Shown here: positions 4,358 through 27,433 of the stretch, in pieces | Numbering within the stretch: position 1 is the first letter of the stretch | Layout: every line of letters begins with the position of its first letter | Virus record (IMG/VR): IMGVR_UViG_3300017914_000233 | Span: 1 to 47,310 of that record | Origin: a virus | Taxonomy: Duplodnaviria > Caudoviricetes | Strand: one strand, 5' to 3' | Length of the DNA stretch: 47,310 nt | Notes under the pieces: model-generated | What the model was told of the DNA's origin: nothing | Databases searched by the model: none | What the model saw: only the letters and a program-made list of their open reading frames with translations | Position numbers and translations under genes: made by a program

Positions 4358-4712
4358 CTGCTTTTGGAGGCAGAATAAACAAAGGACTCTCAGCTTTAAC
4401 TTCGACTTTTTCTGTTTTTACAAAGCCAGCTCTATCAAGGAAGTCCTTAGCTGCTGCCATCTTCTCTTTATTGCCCAAGTCGGTGGGGTTTTGCATTACT
4501 TGCACCATAGACCAAACAGCTTTTGGTCCATTTTGTGCAATAAAATCACGAGTACGTTCAGCTACTTCATTCTTTAGAGATGCCATAACTGTAGTACTGG
4601 ATGTGCCTTCGGCATACCCTGCAATTTTTAATGCTTTTACAGGGTTGCCTTCGGCTTCATTAAACAGTGCATCTAAAAATGCTTGTTGTTTTTCAGTAAG
4701 CTGTCTTTCCAT
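4347..4712 (-). CDS. Terminase small subunit-like protein
   Basis: N-terminal LTEKQQAF...N...A.K.AGY HTH pattern; upstream of TerL. Confidence 0.7.
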   Translation of the reverse strand: MERQLTEKQQAFLDALFNEAEGNPVKALKIAGYAEGTSSTTVMASLKNEVAERTRDFIAQNGPKAVWSMVQVMQNPTDLGNKEKMAAAKDFLDRAGFVKTEKVEVKAESPLFILPPKADED

Positions 4713-4869
4713 TATAAACTACATCTCTAATCTGACCACGTCCGATACCAATATCTTGTAACTCTTTGTCAGACATAGAACCTAGTTGCATCATTGCGAT
4801 TCTACGGTCTGCTTCTGCTTGACGTGATTTTTGAATTGCGATTAATACTCTTTTTAAAAAGTTTAACAT
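4693..4869 (-). CDS. DUF1127 (YjiS-like) small protein, 58 aa
   Basis: LGSMSDKELQDIGIGRGQI matches the DUF1127 signature; AGGAG RBS before ATG at 4869 (shorter than the ORF-track call). Confidence 0.85.
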   Translation of the reverse strand: MLNFLKRVLIAIQKSRQAEADRRIAMMQLGSMSDKELQDIGIGRGQIRDVVYNGKTAY

Positions 4870-4926
4870 TTGTGTACTCCTATGTAAAGTAGCATTATTG
4901 CTACAAGGAGTAGTTTTACACATATA

Positions 4927-4955
4927 GTTATAACATACTATTGCTAATATTGCAA
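4927..4955 (-). promoter_or_regulatory. Sigma70-type promoter for the DUF1127 gene
   Basis: TTGCAA-N17-TATAAC on the - strand in the intergenic gap. Confidence 0.65.
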
Positions 4956-4960
4956 CCCCG

Positions 4961-5323
4961 TTATGCAGGTTGAAAATGTTCTTCACCTGAAAGAATAATA
5001 TGAAAGTCGCCACCAGATTCTTTGTGAGCTACAATCTTATCTCCAGCTTCTAGTGCAATATACCCACCACCTTGAATAAACTCATGCACTGTGTTTGCAT
5101 CTGGTTTAAACTCATCAGCAATGTGGTGATATATTGTAGTTGAAGCATCATACCAGTGGATACTTATTTTCTTTTGTGCATCACCGTTAGATACATGTAA
5201 GTATCTTACTAAAGAGATAAAATTATTAGGGCATGTATAAATCACATCAGAAGAAGCCCCACCTGAAGTGGAGCTAATATCTTTTGCTGCAGTAAAGAAT
5301 TTAGCTGTACTAATACTGGCCAT
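4961..5323 (-). CDS. Hypothetical beta-rich protein
   Basis: 120-aa ORF, TAATG coupling to upstream gene. Confidence 0.75.
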   Translation of the reverse strand: MASISTAKFFTAAKDISSTSGGASSDVIYTCPNNFISLVRYLHVSNGDAQKKISIHWYDASTTIYHHIADEFKPDANTVHEFIQGGGYIALEAGDKIVAHKESGGDFHIILSGEEHFQPA

Positions 5324-8772: not shown

Positions 8773-9158
8773 TACTTTTTTCCAAAAAATTTAGTTGCTG
8801 AACGAATACCGAAGCTAGCTGCTACAATTACACCAACTGTATACTGATACCACTCTGGCATACCCTGTAGTGCAGCAAAACCATCTTCAACTATTTTACG
8901 TCCCCACTCTCCGCAAAATGATAGGATCAGGGGAATTGAGAATAAAATTGTTAGCCATTCGTCTTTCCATGAATTTTGGCTACCTTGAGCCATTACTCTT
9001 TCCCATTCAGCTTCTGATGTTGCAGCAGATAACATAATTTGTGCTTCAGCTTCAGCTTTAGCTACTTTAGCTCTAGTCTCTGCAGCTTTCTTCTCAATAG
9101 AACCTTTAAGGAAAGTACCTGCTAGTTCGGTGATTGGACCTATAAGTGCCTGTATCAT
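8772..9158 (-). CDS. Holin-like membrane protein
   Basis: Hydrophobic segments, SWKDEW motif, adjacent to endolysin. Confidence 0.6.
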   Translation of the reverse strand: MIQALIGPITELAGTFLKGSIEKKAAETRAKVAKAEAEAQIMLSAATSEAEWERVMAQGSQNSWKDEWLTILFSIPLILSFCGEWGRKIVEDGFAALQGMPEWYQYTVGVIVAASFGIRSATKFFGKK

Positions 9159-9358
9159 TTTTTAGTGGACTCCTTACCCATCCAGATACCAAAGCAACCA
9201 GTAAGAGCACCCATACACACTGAGACTAGACCTGCCTGTGCATTGCTGGGGTCTTCTAGAGCCATAAACCAGTGTACTGCTTGGTAGGTGAGGATAGTCA
9301 CTGCAAGCATCATTAGTCGTGGTAGGACTTTCCAGTCGTCTAGAATAGTAGCTGCCAT
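9155..9358 (-). CDS. Two-TM small membrane protein, possible holin or antiholin
   Basis: Two hydrophobic helices; probable start 9358 by TAATG coupling. Confidence 0.6.
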   Translation of the reverse strand: MAATILDDWKVLPRLMMLAVTILTYQAVHWFMALEDPSNAQAGLVSVCMGALTGCFGIWMGKESTKK

Positions 9359-9609
9359 TATTCCCAATCTCTTTTTCTATCTGGATCTAAGACATCGTAT
9401 CTGCTGAGGTGACCCTCTAGGTACATAGCTCTTTCTACTCTGTCGAGAGTGTACCGTACGCCTGTGTCTTGATGGATTGCTTCTCGTACATAGAATACAT
9501 CAGAACGTGGTATGTGTACTCTACGTAGTTTTGCTTCGTTTCCATCAATTAGAGCTGAATAAAAATCCTCTAGGATGGTCTCTGAAGCATATAGTTTTGG
9601 TTTGGACAT
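9358..9609 (-). CDS. Hypothetical protein, first gene of the leftward arm
   Basis: 83-aa ORF coupled to the next gene; no SD seen. Confidence 0.7.
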   Translation of the reverse strand: MSKPKLYASETILEDFYSALIDGNEAKLRRVHIPRSDVFYVREAIHQDTGVRYTLDRVERAMYLEGHLSRYDVLDPDRKRDWE

Positions 9610-9614
9610 GAGTA

Positions 9615-9642
9615 GTTATACTTTAAGTTTTGCAAAAGGCAA
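9615..9642 (-). promoter_or_regulatory. Candidate promoter directly abutting the ATG at 9609
   Basis: TTGCCT-N16-TATAAC, then 5 nt to ATG. Confidence 0.5.
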
Positions 9643-9798
9643 GTCTTTTTAGTGGGACGACAGAAAAAAGTTAAAGCCCGCCCCGTACTTTAAGTACACT
9701 TTAAGTACACTCTTAGTATTACTTATAGTATTTAATAACTTTTAATATTAGAAGTAATAAAAACTTAAGTGAAGCTTTATGTATACTTTATGTATATA

Positions 9799-9827
9799 AT
9801 TATATCCCGCCGGTCGTATTCTGTCAA
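9799..9827 (-). promoter_or_regulatory. Consensus sigma70 promoter for the leftward (late) arm
   Basis: TTGACA-N17-TATAAT, perfect match on the - strand. Confidence 0.85.
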
Positions 9828-9838
9828 GAGAAAAATGC

Positions 9839-9891
9839 TGTGATCACAAAAATAATTTTCCTTATATCGACTCTTAATTTGTGATCACAAA
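9839..9891. promoter_or_regulatory. Two TGTGATCACA palindromes, putative operators
   Basis: 9839-9848 and 9878-9891 (TTTGTGATCACAAA), just upstream of the -35 box. Confidence 0.6.
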
Positions 9892-10006
9892 ATACTTGTG
9901 GTTAACAGCCTTAAAAATACCCCCCTCTGTCACTGGGCGTATATATGTACGCATACACCCCCCGTGACCCATACGCCCCCCTCAATGCAATCAACGGGCG
10001 AGTCAC

Positions 10007-10602
10007 ATTCAATTTTTTGAATATGTACTATCATCGCATGCAAACATATGAATATGTGAATATGTTTAGACAATATAACATTATATTCGCATATTTGAAT
10101 ATGTTATAATGTAACATTTTGCTACTTGCGAGTCGTTCGCAAGAAGTATGCACCATATCATATTCACATATTACAATTCCTGAATGTATACCCCAACCAA
10201 CACATTCACATATCTGAATATGAGAATCATTCGCAAGTAGACACATTCAGTTTATTGAATATGTTATCACATTCAGATATTCATATGTTTGAATATGATA
10301 CACATTCAGTTTCTTGAATGTTAGCCCTAACAAAATACCCAAAAAATACACATTCAGTTTCTTGAATATTAAACGTAAAGGCCGTTTTTAAGGCCGTACA
10401 ATGGGGGCAAATTTTACCCTATGCCTGCCCTATAGAATTGAACCCCCTATTCAGTGAAGCTATTTGATAGGTCTACGTTCATATTCAACTTACTGAATAT
10501 GTTTTTTCTGGTATATGTGAAGGGTATTAACATATCCTTTTGGATAGGTTTGACTAGTACGAAAGTATAGGTTTTTGGCCTAACATATTCAACTTTTTGA
10601 AT
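10007..10602. repeat. Array of ATTC-N8-GAAT palindromes
   Basis: Nine exact copies starting at 10007, 10085, 10204, 10245, 10279, 10304, 10352, 10483, 10587; a tenth at 11289. Confidence 0.9.
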
Positions 10603-10712
10603 ACTATCATGCCTATACTAATGGATAGGTGTGTATCCCTATGCACCTCAAATTATGCCTCTGGATAGGTATAAAACCTGTTGACAAGTTGATATTCAGG
10701 GATTGCCGATAG

Positions 10713-11260
10713 GCCGTCGACGGACGTAAAACGGGGGTCACCCGATTAGCTTAACGGCGTCCAGTCTTATAGAGTAGGTCAGTGATACACCCCCACGTTG
10801 TTTGAAAATTGAATAGGACTAGGCGGATAGGCGAAAGCCGATAATTCCAGACAAAGCCTAAAAAGAGTAGGCCTAACCAATGGCCAAAATTTTCGGTTTT
10901 GTTATAGTCGCAATTACTAGCCTAGTCGTCATTTTCGATAATTTGCAAGCCCCATGGTTTTGGGGGCTTTTCCCGACATAATAATAAATCGGGACAATTT
11001 GGGGACCGTAACAATCGCAACCAAGTTGAAATAAAAGGTAGCAAACACAGCCATTGCTACGCAGATCAAAACCAGTCAATCAATACAAAATTAAGCCTTT
11101 GGGGCGTATGAGAAAACGTCTTAAAATACTAGCCCACACGATTTGACATATAGTCAAAATTTAGGTGGTGTTTCCATATAGGTTGGGACAGACGATAAAC
11201 CAAAGCAAGATTGACTAGCCCACTGCGAACGGTTGACCAGATCAACTTAGGTGGGCGCAA
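10713..11260 (+). ncRNA. Candidate structured RNA or long leader, family unknown
   Basis: Dense run of hairpins, GAAA tetraloop, duplicated structural unit, no long ORF. Confidence 0.35.
10880..10981 (+). CDS. 33-aa hydrophobic peptide MAKIFGFVIVAITSLVVIFDNLQAPWFWGLFPT
   Basis: Hand translation; one TM-like stretch; weak RBS (GAGTAGG). Confidence 0.4.
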   Translation: MAKIFGFVIVAITSLVVIFDNLQAPWFWGLFPT

Positions 11261-11347
11261 GCCTTGCCAGCTTGTAAAATACATTCATATTCCAATTATT
11301 GAATGTGTTTTATTTACTGGCAACGTCAAAACATGAAAGGAAACATT

Positions 11348-11845
11348 ATGACATATTCAGTGAAAGATTGGGGTTCAGATATCCGCAACGCAGAAACACG
11401 TTTTTTCCCAATGGTTGCAGATTGTTTGGAACAGTTAAACAATGGCAATTCGACAGACCTAGCAAAATTGCTATGCATCACGCATGGCAAAAAATCTAGC
11501 ATTATTACAGTGATTGAGGGTGAACGCCTAAAATTTGCAACGCCTTTAAAACGTATCTTGAACCATGCATTGGAAGGTGTTGAGATAAAATTTGATGCTA
11601 AGAAAAAATCGGGTGTCAAAATCAAGGTGGGTGACAATGGTGGCGCAAGCACTGATCGCATACAAGCATTGCGTCAATTAGGTAAAGCAACGGTTGCATC
11701 AAAAGCATTCAAGGATGCATTCCCTGCACCCGAAAAGGCTGCAAAGCAATTTGATGCGATCGCATGGGCAGAACGTGCGGTAAAATCAAATGGTGCTGAT
11801 CAATTGGAAGCAATGATCGCAGCATTGCAAGCAAAACGTGGGTAA
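11348..11845 (+). CDS. First early protein, hypothetical (165 aa)
   Basis: GAAAGGA RBS before ATG at 11348. Confidence 0.8.
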   Translation: MTYSVKDWGSDIRNAETRFFPMVADCLEQLNNGNSTDLAKLLCITHGKKSSIITVIEGERLKFATPLKRILNHALEGVEIKFDAKKKSGVKIKVGDNGGASTDRIQALRQLGKATVASKAFKDAFPAPEKAAKQFDAIAWAERAVKSNGADQLEAMIAALQAKRG

Positions 11846-13215: not shown

Positions 13216-13566
13216 ATGGGACGTAAAAAAAGTGAAAAGAACTATGCAATCAACTTCAAGCATGAGGTGTGCCAATACTATGAGCACCACACGCAGAAGG
13301 AGACCATAGAAATGTATGGTGTCTCAGCAGTTAGCATATGGAAGTGGCGTGTAGCACTAGGTTACCGCAACAAACACCGTGGGTACAACCCGCACATGCA
13401 GCACATACAACCTGTGGTACCAACGCAACAAACCCGTGACTTTATGGTCACACGTGACGAAAATGGTAAGCTGCGAGCTGATCTTGCAGAGATTACACAG
13501 AAATATGTTGCACTTGAGCAACAGTTTACCGAGTTCAAATCTAAAATTATGGAGGCTCTACAGTAA
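13216..13566 (+). CDS. HTH DNA-binding protein with C-terminal coiled coil
   Basis: Y...FK..V...TIEMYGVSAVSIWKWR HTH pattern; heptad-like C-terminus; GAGGAG RBS. Confidence 0.65.
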   Translation: MGRKKSEKNYAINFKHEVCQYYEHHTQKETIEMYGVSAVSIWKWRVALGYRNKHRGYNPHMQHIQPVVPTQQTRDFMVTRDENGKLRADLAEITQKYVALEQQFTEFKSKIMEALQ

Positions 13567-16727: not shown

Positions 16728-16804
16728 CCGCCCCTAGCTCAACTGGATAGAGCACCTGACTTCTAATCAGGGGGTTGCAGGTTCGAGTCCTGCGGGGCGG
16801 GCCA
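16728..16804 (+). tRNA. tRNA-Arg(TCT)
   Basis: Full cloverleaf: CCGCCCC/GGGGCGG acceptor, GCTC/GAGC D stem with A20, CCTGA/TCAGG anticodon stem with TCT at 16762-16764, GGTTCGAGTCC T arm, encoded CCA. Confidence 0.96.
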
Positions 16805-25317: not shown

Positions 25318-27260
25318 GCAACTATTTACCTACTGACTATCAGTCATTCATTCACAAGTCACGGTATGCTAAATACTTTGATGGTAAGGGACGTGAGAAC
25401 TGGGATGAAACTGTTCACAGGTATATCTACGAGGTAGTCTACAAAGCCCTACCCAACAATGATTTTGACGGACCTGTAAGCAAAGAAGTTTATGACTTTG
25501 ATTGGGGTGCTGTTGAGAAAGAAATACACGATGCCATCTTGAACCTAGAGATCATGCCCAGTATGAGGGCAATGATGACTGCTGGTCCTGCACTAGAACG
25601 TGATAACACAGCAGGGTATAACTGTTCATATTTACCAGTGGACGACCCTAAGTCTTTTGACGAAGCTATGTTTATCTTGCTGTGTGGTACAGGTGTAGGC
25701 TTCAGTGTTGAACGACAGTACATCACCAAGCTTCCTGAAGTACCAAAGTTGTTTGAAAGTGATACCACTATCGTAGTTAAAGATAGTAAAGAGGGTTGGG
25801 CCAAAGCTTTCCGTCAACTGTTAGCACTACTATGGGCAGGTGAGATTCCTAAGTGGGATGTCAGTAAAGTACGTCCTGCAGGTGCACGACTAAAGACGTT
25901 TGGTGGTAGAGCTTCTGGCCCTGCTCCACTGGTTGAGTTGTTTAACTTTGCTGTATCTACCTTTAAAGCTGCACAAGGGCGTAAGCTTACATCTATGGAG
26001 TGTCACGACTTGATGTGCTTTATCGGTCAAATTGTTGTTGTAGGCGGTGTACGTCGATCAGCTATGATTTCTTTGTCTAATCTATCAGATGACCGTATGC
26101 GTCATGCTAAGTCAGGGCAATGGTGGGAGACTGCAGCACACCGTGCACTAGCTAACAATTCAGTATCATACACAGAGAAGCCAGATGTAGAAACATTTAT
26201 GCGTGAGTGGACTGCACTGGTTGAATCTAAATCAGGTGAAAGAGGAGTGTTCAATCGTGAAGCATCCAAGAAACAAGCTGCAAAGTATGGTAGACGTGAC
26301 TCTACGTATGACTTCGGAACTAACCCGTGTTCTGAGATCATCCTTCGTCCTTATCAGTTCTGTAATCTTACAGAGTGTGTTGTCCGTGCTACGGATACTA
26401 TCGACGATCTTGCTCGCAAGGTACGATTGGCTACAATCCTTGGAACAATCCAATCAACCTACACCAAGTTCCCATACTTGCGAAAGGTGTGGCAACGAAA
26501 TACCGAAGAAGAACGATTGCTCGGTGTGTCTCTCACAGGGATAATGGATAACCCATTACTTACTACAAAGAATGCTGCTCTTGAAAAAACTCTTCGTCAT
26601 CTGCGTGAAGTTGCTGTTGCTACTAATGCTGAGTGGGCTGATCGTCTCGGTATCCCTGTATCTGCTAGTATCACGTGCGTTAAGCCAAGTGGCACTGTCT
26701 CTCAGCTTGTGGATTCAGCATCTGGAATCCATGCTCGCCACTCACGGTTTTACATTAGGACTGTTAGAGGAGACAACAAAGACCCTCTTACTCAGTTCAT
26801 GAAAGATCAAGGCATTCCTAGTGAACCTTGTGTGTTTAAGCCTGACACTACTACAGTGTTTAGCTTTCCACAGAAGTCACCTGATAATGCTGTGACTCGT
26901 AACGACATGACAGCTATCGAACAGTTAGAGATGTGGTTAAGCTATCAAAGAGCATGGTGTGAGCATAAGCCAAGTGTAACTATCTCAGTACGTGATTCTG
27001 AATGGCTGGACGTAGGTGCCTTTGTGTACAAACATTTTGATGAAATGTCTGGTGTATCGTTTTTGCCACACTCTGATCACACCTATCAGCAAGCACCCTA
27101 TCAAGATTGCAGTAAGAGAGAGTACGAAGAACTACTGTCATCAATGCCAAAACGTATTGACTGGTCTAAGCTGTCTGAGTATGAGCAAGAAGACAACACT
27201 GTAGCAATGCAGACAATGGCTTGCTCTGGTGACTCATGCGAAATCGTAGACCTAACATAG
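25314..27260 (+). CDS. nrdJ: Class II adenosylcobalamin-dependent ribonucleotide reductase
   Basis: YNCS, G.GVG, GGVRRSA, TNPCSEI, CVKPSGT, C-terminal C...C; no small subunit nearby. Confidence 0.93.
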   Translation: MSNYLPTDYQSFIHKSRYAKYFDGKGRENWDETVHRYIYEVVYKALPNNDFDGPVSKEVYDFDWGAVEKEIHDAILNLEIMPSMRAMMTAGPALERDNTAGYNCSYLPVDDPKSFDEAMFILLCGTGVGFSVERQYITKLPEVPKLFESDTTIVVKDSKEGWAKAFRQLLALLWAGEIPKWDVSKVRPAGARLKTFGGRASGPAPLVELFNFAVSTFKAAQGRKLTSMECHDLMCFIGQIVVVGGVRRSAMISLSNLSDDRMRHAKSGQWWETAAHRALANNSVSYTEKPDVETFMREWTALVESKSGERGVFNREASKKQAAKYGRRDSTYDFGTNPCSEIILRPYQFCNLTECVVRATDTIDDLARKVRLATILGTIQSTYTKFPYLRKVWQRNTEEERLLGVSLTGIMDNPLLTTKNAALEKTLRHLREVAVATNAEWADRLGIPVSASITCVKPSGTVSQLVDSASGIHARHSRFYIRTVRGDNKDPLTQFMKDQGIPSEPCVFKPDTTTVFSFPQKSPDNAVTRNDMTAIEQLEMWLSYQRAWCEHKPSVTISVRDSEWLDVGAFVYKHFDEMSGVSFLPHSDHTYQQAPYQDCSKREYEELLSSMPKRIDWSKLSEYEQEDNTVAMQTMACSGDSCEIVDLT

Positions 27261-27433
27261 GTGCTGTGCCTTCACCCTGCATACTCATCTGTCAAATAAA
27301 AGATGGAGAGTGTGTAGGGTGTAAACGTACAATAGACGAAATCAGAGACTGGATCATTATGTCAGAGTATGAACAAAAGAAACTCTTATGCGAACTGAAG
27401 TGGAGAAAAGATGTACGTGATAATAACACGTGA
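27236..27433 (+). CDS. DUF1289 Cys-rich protein (start may be GTG at 27266)
   Basis: SPCI..C.I..GECVGC.RT.DEI..W. Confidence 0.8.
   Translation: MRNRRPNIGAVPSPCILICQIKDGECVGCKRTIDEIRDWIIMSEYEQKKLLCELKWRKDVRDNNT

Follow-up and report, generated by a model that had tools for sequence, protein, structure and literature searches.

Dense arrays of binding sites for one host regulator have been described in phages for CtrA, with 12 sites in 1.3 kb in the gap region of vB_BsubS-Delta and further arrays in the terminal repeats of phiCbK (PMC9437464). These arrays are described as having independent origins and turnover, and, CtrA being a cell-cycle regulator, they are read as cis control for lytic deferment. 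The same report describes LexA- and Spo0A-controlled phage switches, in which the phage carries host repressor boxes that overlap defined phage promoters.

The regulator most relevant to the locus described here is SqrR, the persulfide-sensing ArsR-family repressor of Rhodobacter, which in R. capsulatus recognizes the site ATTC-N8-GAAT (PMC9774250). Its minimal operator is symmetric and 22 bp long and is bound with a Ka of approximately 1e9 per M; base contacts come from Q61 and Q66, and ArsR clusters are reported not to crosstalk (bioRxiv 10.64898/2026.05.15.721447). An operator variant, ATTC-N8-ATAT, has also been described, and the spacer sequence ATAT recruits three SqrR dimers in vitro (bioRxiv 10.64898/2026.05.02.721436). 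Loss of sqrR in R. capsulatus raises sulfur-gene transcripts more than tenfold (PMC9995734) and alters c-di-GMP, biofilm and gene-transfer-agent output (PMC9143464), and in Hyphomicrobium sulfur oxidation is repressed by a related protein, SoxR (PMC10451225).

Known SqrR operators are single sites over host promoters. In contrast, the stretch of viral DNA analyzed here (47,310 nucleotides, IMG/VR record IMGVR_UViG_3300017914_000233, referred to as the window) carries ten such sites, mostly far from genes. The window is a phage contig that is approximately 85% complete. Its TerL is 82% identical to that of CRP-13/CRP-9, its polymerase is best matched by that of CRP-6 (57% identity) and an integrase is encoded; it is a phage of HMO-2011 type whose polymerase is CRP-6-like. 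In its HMO-2011-type morphogenesis, CRP-6-type replication and integrase it resembles the Group II recombinants of Zhai et al. (PMC8528129), and the available part of that report mentions neither this non-coding block nor the motifs in it. The phage's closest relatives in culture have RCA and HIMB11-like roseobacters as hosts, and its own host is probably a roseobacter as well. A tRNA-Arg(TCT) gene at 16728-16804, directly 5' of the integrase, is a possible attP; among 121 host-family genomes it had no perfect match, and the best match, 93-94%, was uninformative, so that it was dropped as a marker of host or attP. Small proteins at 4693-5013 and 27236-27433 carry DUF1127 and DUF1289 domains.

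The sites lie in a non-coding block of approximately 1.7 kb (9610-11347), between the leftward late arm and the rightward early arm. From left to right, the block contains a late promoter, two copies of GTGATCAC, a conserved landmark, nine dyads, a boxA-like motif with a hairpin and the tenth dyad, after which the first early gene begins (Table 1).

Table 1. Features of the non-coding block and the additional core copy, in window coordinates
Feature	Position	Strand	Remarks
Clustered exact SqrR-type operators (n=9)	10007, 10085, 10204, 10245, 10279, 10304, 10352, 10483, 10587 (span 10007..10602)		Motif search
Tenth SqrR-type operator	11289..11304		Ends 43 bp 5' of first early gene
Near-sites (one mismatch)	10038, 10162, 10170		8-bp register with neighbouring sites
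ATTC-N8-ATAT variants, sqr-promoter type	10046, 10271 (span with near-sites 10038..10286)		8-bp register with neighbours; variant class from bioRxiv 10.64898/2026.05.02.721436
Eleventh exact core, in RNR gene	26713..26728		Without CAY/RTG flanks
Sigma70-type promoter match, 12/12	9799..9827	-	Faces late arm
AkgR-type half-sites GTGATCAC (n=2; 9840, 9881)	9840..9888		41 bp apart; published spacer 13 bp
Conserved landmark, inferred pac region	9898..9980		GTGGTTAAC-like core in 67/77 blocks
Presumed Zur-like box	10102..10116		In 6/29 relatives vs 0 in shuffles
Presumed Fur/Mur-like 7-1-7 palindromes (n=2; 10127, 10221)	10127..10235		Motif scan
TATCC-N4-GGATA dyad, one exact and two degenerate	10533..10667		Motif scan
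Presumed boxA-like motif, then DUF805b-like RNA hairpin	10797..10873	+	Downstream of nine-site array
First early gene, 165 aa, no family	11348..11845	+	Gene call, family search

All ten exact copies of ATTC-N8-GAAT named in a preliminary description of this DNA were found, as were its three one-mismatch copies; its list had missed the exact core in the RNR gene, which is probably a chance occurrence, and a further one-mismatch copy at 9818 that a scan of the window revealed. The 11 exact copies in the whole window compare with 0.83 expected and a maximum of 4 in 100 shuffles, and the 10 in the non-coding block with a shuffle mean of 0.04 and a maximum of 1 in 2000 shuffles. When spacer lengths from 0 to 20 were compared locally, strong enrichment was seen at 8 only, the runner-up being 16 with three copies. 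The strict 22-bp consensus is matched by five of the ten window sites and the 20-bp consensus AYATTC-N8-GAATRT by nine of the ten, or eight of the nine clustered ones. Contigs from two other studies span the array (10004-10340, with 8 differences, and 9000-10332), so it is no assembly artefact. The array is real and under selection. One RNA run had no reads over it, which bears neither way.

The dyad had been described as matching no known box; it is in fact the core of the SqrR operator. The phage sites share with the R. capsulatus operator (SqrR/BigR/YgaV/SoxR cluster) the core, the spacer length, the ATTC-N8-ATAT variant and the flanks, since the CAT before and GT after natural SqrR operators agree with the phage consensus. 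Their spacers are also rich in ATAT: of 38 distinct phage spacers, 10 include it, where 4.5 would be expected (p 0.008). The earlier view of a site for a dimeric protein was right. The patterns of FnrL, LexA, CtrA and CceR fail to account for the dyad, and IHF, ArgR, Lrp and LysR were ruled out by orientation or spacing. Because the dyad matches the SqrR operator, the binder of the array is most likely a host repressor, and on sequence grounds it is highly probable that a SqrR-type protein of the host binds these sites.

The host family was entered through a genome scan with a perfect 24-bp consensus, in which two of the 80 listed loci were from roseobacters and the loci were mostly from unrelated taxa. 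Genomes of the family of Cognatishimia coralii (Rhodobacteraceae) were used, 251 in the strict 22-bp scan and 121 in the 20-bp and repressor scans. The strict consensus occurred at 24 sites in 22 of the 251 genomes, against 2 for a reversed control that may be lenient. As raw counts, 12 of the 24 face YgaP-like (6), MBL/persulfide dioxygenase (3), YeeE-type, TusA or SoxC genes, 9 face thioredoxin, CMD, MsrP, RND adaptor, fatty-acid hydroxylase or FMN glutamate-synthase-like genes, and 3 have no assigned gene; one of the 24 is the site through which the family was entered. The 20-bp consensus yielded 144 sites in 74 of 121 genomes against 8 control sites, with a mean of 1.2 and a range of 0-6 per genome. 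Among 20 of these sites picked by hand, 11 face rhodanese (4), TsoY (2), MBL-fold (2), SoxB, YeeE-type or DsbD-TM genes.

A cognate repressor would have an R-Q..S-Q-Q helix and two cysteines; SqrR-like proteins are present in 86 of the 121 family genomes. They have the recognition helix RQAAVSQQL and SqrR as their best PDB match, and the 86 genomes include two of 2.1 Mb. Genomes with such a protein hold 1.37 sites on average and those without it 0.74 (p 0.012, in a comparison that ignores relatedness); the 35 genomes without a SqrR match still hold 26 sites. Self-regulation of sqrR through the ATTC-N8-GAAT core is rare, being seen in one of 30 gene neighbourhoods.

Related phage blocks were taken from the best 80 of 462 loci of the last late gene, the window, locus L053 and eight cultured phages, 90 blocks in all, of which 18 shorter than 900 nt were excluded and the remaining 72 collapsed to 29 clusters. 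A comparable motif recurs in these relatives, as the preliminary description would have it, with 32 boxes in 10 of the 29 representatives against 0.71 in shuffles. Leaving out the window and L053, which had been fetched by the motif, 20 boxes are counted in 8 of 27 representatives, two of them, in CRP-9, without flanks. Twelve further record ends added CRP-2 and CRP-603 with two boxes each and ten with none, four of these ten having fewer than 300 non-coding bases; no SqrR-type box was found in CRP-13. The box is absent from 19 of the 29 related blocks and is dispensable at the lineage level.

In 13 groups of orthologous sites, only one of which includes a window site, half-sites were variable in 6 of 104 columns, against 17 of 104 in the spacers (p 0.013) and 43 of 260 in distant flanks (p 0.004). 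The 3-bp flanks varied in 15 of 78 columns and are kept no better than background. An earlier and looser alignment that included misaligned blocks gave the same direction of conservation. In principle, duplication within an AT-rich spacer region could have produced the array without any selection: the copies at 10304 and 10352 have spacer and flanks in common, and in two other phages (L470 and L472) a box unit is duplicated in tandem. The fixed 8-bp spacer, the better-kept half-sites, the match to several real host boxes and the recurrence in unrelated phages make such an origin extremely improbable.

The preliminary description had proposed TerS, a 145-aa protein and an HTH protein encoded at 13216 as binders. 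TerS and the 145-aa protein are encoded both by relatives that carry the box and by relatives that lack it. The 13216 product does look like an HTH protein, and its homolog is found in 10 of 11 boxed contigs with a long early side against 12 of 27 without the box; it was not found, however, in the box carriers CRP-2, CRP-603 and CRP-9 or in five box-bearing records of other lineages, which makes it a weak candidate. Box-bearing phages have unrelated terminases. No ArsR domain was found in the proteins of the window, and no SqrR homologue in 22 phage relatives. Although the incompleteness of the contig leaves room for a binder encoded in the missing 15%, a phage protein of any of these kinds, with a merely convergent match to SqrR, is very unlikely.

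We favour the reading that the nine clustered sites form a decoy that would titrate host SqrR and thereby switch on sulfur and redox genes, so that "operator plus sponge", as first suggested, remains the preferred interpretation. Taken as a whole, this proposal falls slightly short of an even chance; if SqrR binding is granted, a decoy function would be an evenly balanced call. On entry of the phage genome, reduced SqrR dimers would bind the array, and replication would raise the number of sites far above the host's own. Titration would derepress sox, persulfide dioxygenase, sulfur-transfer and thiol-redox genes, which would yield energy from thiosulfate or sulfide and guard against oxidative stress and persulfide. 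For the tenth copy, an additional role as a true operator of the first early gene is possible.

A decoy is favoured because one phage genome brings nine consensus sites, against none to six in any of the 121 host-family genomes, because 29 of 30 sites are separated from the first gene by over 120 bp (with a median of 873 and crude gene calls), because the spacers favour multi-dimer loading and because the arrays need no integrase. Several observations speak against it. The array begins right at the inferred pac cut, which is unnecessary for a pure sponge, the box is missing from the 19 blocks noted above, and sites persist in host-family genomes without a SqrR match. In addition, the swapped-in AkgR is an activator, and its half-sites suit cis control, at distances of 13 and 54 bp from the -35 of the late promoter. 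The sponge had also been proposed to count genomes for a lysis/lysogeny decision. Besides the window, 19 of 22 relatives encode an integrase, but arrays of host boxes occur in CRP-9, CRP-13 and G261, in which no integrase was detected; this leaves genome counting unsupported, and the arrays are not confined to integrase-bearing phages as a switch would suggest.

The same sites could instead sense the host in cis, with SqrR and other host factors tuning phage promoters by looping, roadblock or counter-silencing and so coupling early/late expression, lysogeny or lytic deferment to the sulfur/redox state. The putative boxA-like motif near 10797 occurs exactly in 10 of 29 rows against a shuffle mean of 0.75, and the hairpin that follows matches RF02914 (DUF805b) with an E value of 2.4e-6 and 30.9 bits, which is under the Rfam gathering score of 35.6. 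The two likely mark the leader of an early transcript that lies beyond the array, and recurrence of the motif in relatives suggests that this long leader may contain an antitermination element. Of 69 host-type sites, 65 are located 5' of the boxA-like motif, in favour of a role in cis. A near-identical strain (L013, 503-1000 compared with window 10830-11347) has an unrelated early leader and a first gene that is 72% identical; despite the replaced leader, it retains a box approximately 70-80 bp 5' of the same first gene.

Cis sensing is further consistent with the AkgR half-sites that abut the late promoter, whose -35/-10 pattern has a similar counterpart in 46 of 77 relatives' blocks, with the frequent integrase, and with the precedent of CtrA arrays in a phage gap region (PMC9437464). 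Only one of 30 boxes, however, lies within 120 bp of the first gene, promoter-like matches within the array are no commoner than chance would give, arrays occur in the three phages without a detected integrase, and nine sites are more than one switch needs. The candidate promoter that had been placed at 11264-11291 (TTGCCA-16-CATATT) is present as sequence, but it scores 9/12, a level reached by 11 sites against 7.8 +/- 3.4 in shuffles; the tenth copy overlaps this and a 10/12 match, both at chance level. Nine of the ten window sites overlap no convincing promoter, unlike the boxes of LexA/Spo0A switches (PMC9437464), with which the window otherwise shares the carriage of host repressor boxes. 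On balance, we regard cis sensing as rather doubtful.

The position of the array also bears on packaging. For the distant relative phiM6, PhageTerm predicted a pac cut at position 1, with terminal redundancy (PMC6256558), and its opening 110 bases can be aligned, though weakly, to the window landmark. Since the landmark aligns with the phiM6 pac start, we infer a cut near 10010-10030 in the window, and since the phiM6 cut carries redundancy, the genome ends are probably permuted. The first-entering genome end placed here by the preliminary description is a conjecture: the contig ends of relatives are scattered, with no clustering at a terminus, and phiM6 points to pac packaging with redundancy. 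The landmark, common to most relatives, is a candidate packaging signal for the whole group.

Boxes as recognition repeats for packaging, another early suggestion, do not fit their absence from the box-free related blocks or their presence alongside an unrelated terminase: in a phage with a T7-like terminase, the late genes are separated from the early ones by a region with six boxes and one of LexA type. A structural role, in which any tight-binding host protein coats the segment by the pac or leading end and shields the free end that a pac cut leaves, insulates the packaging site or ratchets DNA entry, would agree with this placement in the T7-like phage, with the start of the boxes in four clusters at 60-80 bp from the core of the landmark, at the inferred cut, and with the substitution of different host boxes for one another at this place. 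We consider it unlikely: low-copy, signal-released repressors would presumably make poor roadblocks, several relatives lack any tested box, and the cut position comes from one distant, weakly aligned relative while contig ends are unclustered.

The SqrR-type sites are not the only host boxes in the block, and relatives' blocks carry other host boxes in varying mixes. The motif GTGATCAC is that of AkgR sites (PMC4323418) and, like the other motifs, was chosen by eye from these same blocks, where it occurs 20 times against 0.31 in shuffles; it is found in 35 of 41 host-family genomes, often 5' of sucC, sdh and GntR genes. A dyad TTTAA-N2-TTAAA is present in 16 of 61 host-family genomes, with a control that was not clean, and 12 of 16 fetched copies adjoin genes for malic enzyme, pyruvate dehydrogenase or lipoyl synthase. 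Presumed LexA-type direct repeats number 26 in relatives' blocks against 0.56, and the Zur-like and Fur/Mur-like elements of Table 1 are likewise putative. The dyad TAGTTTAACGTTAAACTA was seen both in phage blocks (L058 9690-9750) and 5' of host maeB, pdhA, lipA and aceE (L391-L406). TATCC-N4-GGATA is present in 25 of 51 host-family genomes and clustered in some, with no consistent gene context among its neighbours there; relatives have up to four exact copies (L065, L072).

The SqrR array thus sits within a modular cassette of host boxes. More broadly, we tentatively propose that marine phages carry a modular non-coding decoy cassette, with arrays for host regulators (SqrR, LexA, AkgR, pyruvate-node, metal-uptake) that are swapped among relatives, have independent origins in unrelated phage families and would rewire sulfur, carbon and stress regulons by titration. 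Such a cassette, if real, would provide an auxiliary metabolic function that needs no gene. Surveys of how phages control host sulfur metabolism usually count auxiliary genes. A 600-bp non-coding decoy in an abundant marine phage group would have a similar predicted outcome, changed expression of host pathways, and would escape gene-based surveys. The boxes also give a gene-free clue to the host family and to host signals relevant to infection. Cultured members of this group infect roseobacters, the box carriers CRP-2, CRP-603 and CRP-9 are in culture, and with SqrR biochemistry established the decoy is directly testable.

Compared with described systems, the window and the CtrA phages both have dense arrays of one host regulator's box in the inter-arm gap or termini, with independent origins and turnover in each case (PMC9437464). 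The window differs in its mosaic of several host boxes swapping among relatives and in the regulator, a metabolic/redox sensor rather than a cell-cycle regulator. Synthetic decoy binding sites in metabolic engineering share the predicted outcome of changed host pathway expression (PMC7826281), and the window may be a natural, non-coding version. Dense host-regulator arrays are already known for CtrA; full-text searches of open-access literature gave no mention of phage-borne SqrR boxes, nor of this block in phages of HMO-2011 type.

Variation in the tested boxes extends to CRP-207 (L356 1700-1800), in which a long CA/GC-rich low-complexity tract and GAATCA repeats replace them, and one host-family genome (G009) has 61 strand matches to TTGTGATCACA against 0-12 elsewhere. 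A triple-site viral scan was set aside, as only 2 of its 57 loci had matches to proteins of the window, the rest being mostly repeats at regular spacing. The two-site viral scan gave 19 loci, ten of which belong to this phage group. SqrR-type boxes were also seen in non-coding blocks of other lineages (L470 4900-5240; L461; L466 2757-2817; L468 592-655; L472 5001-5124), and in one other-lineage phage they take the form of a 36-bp tandem array.
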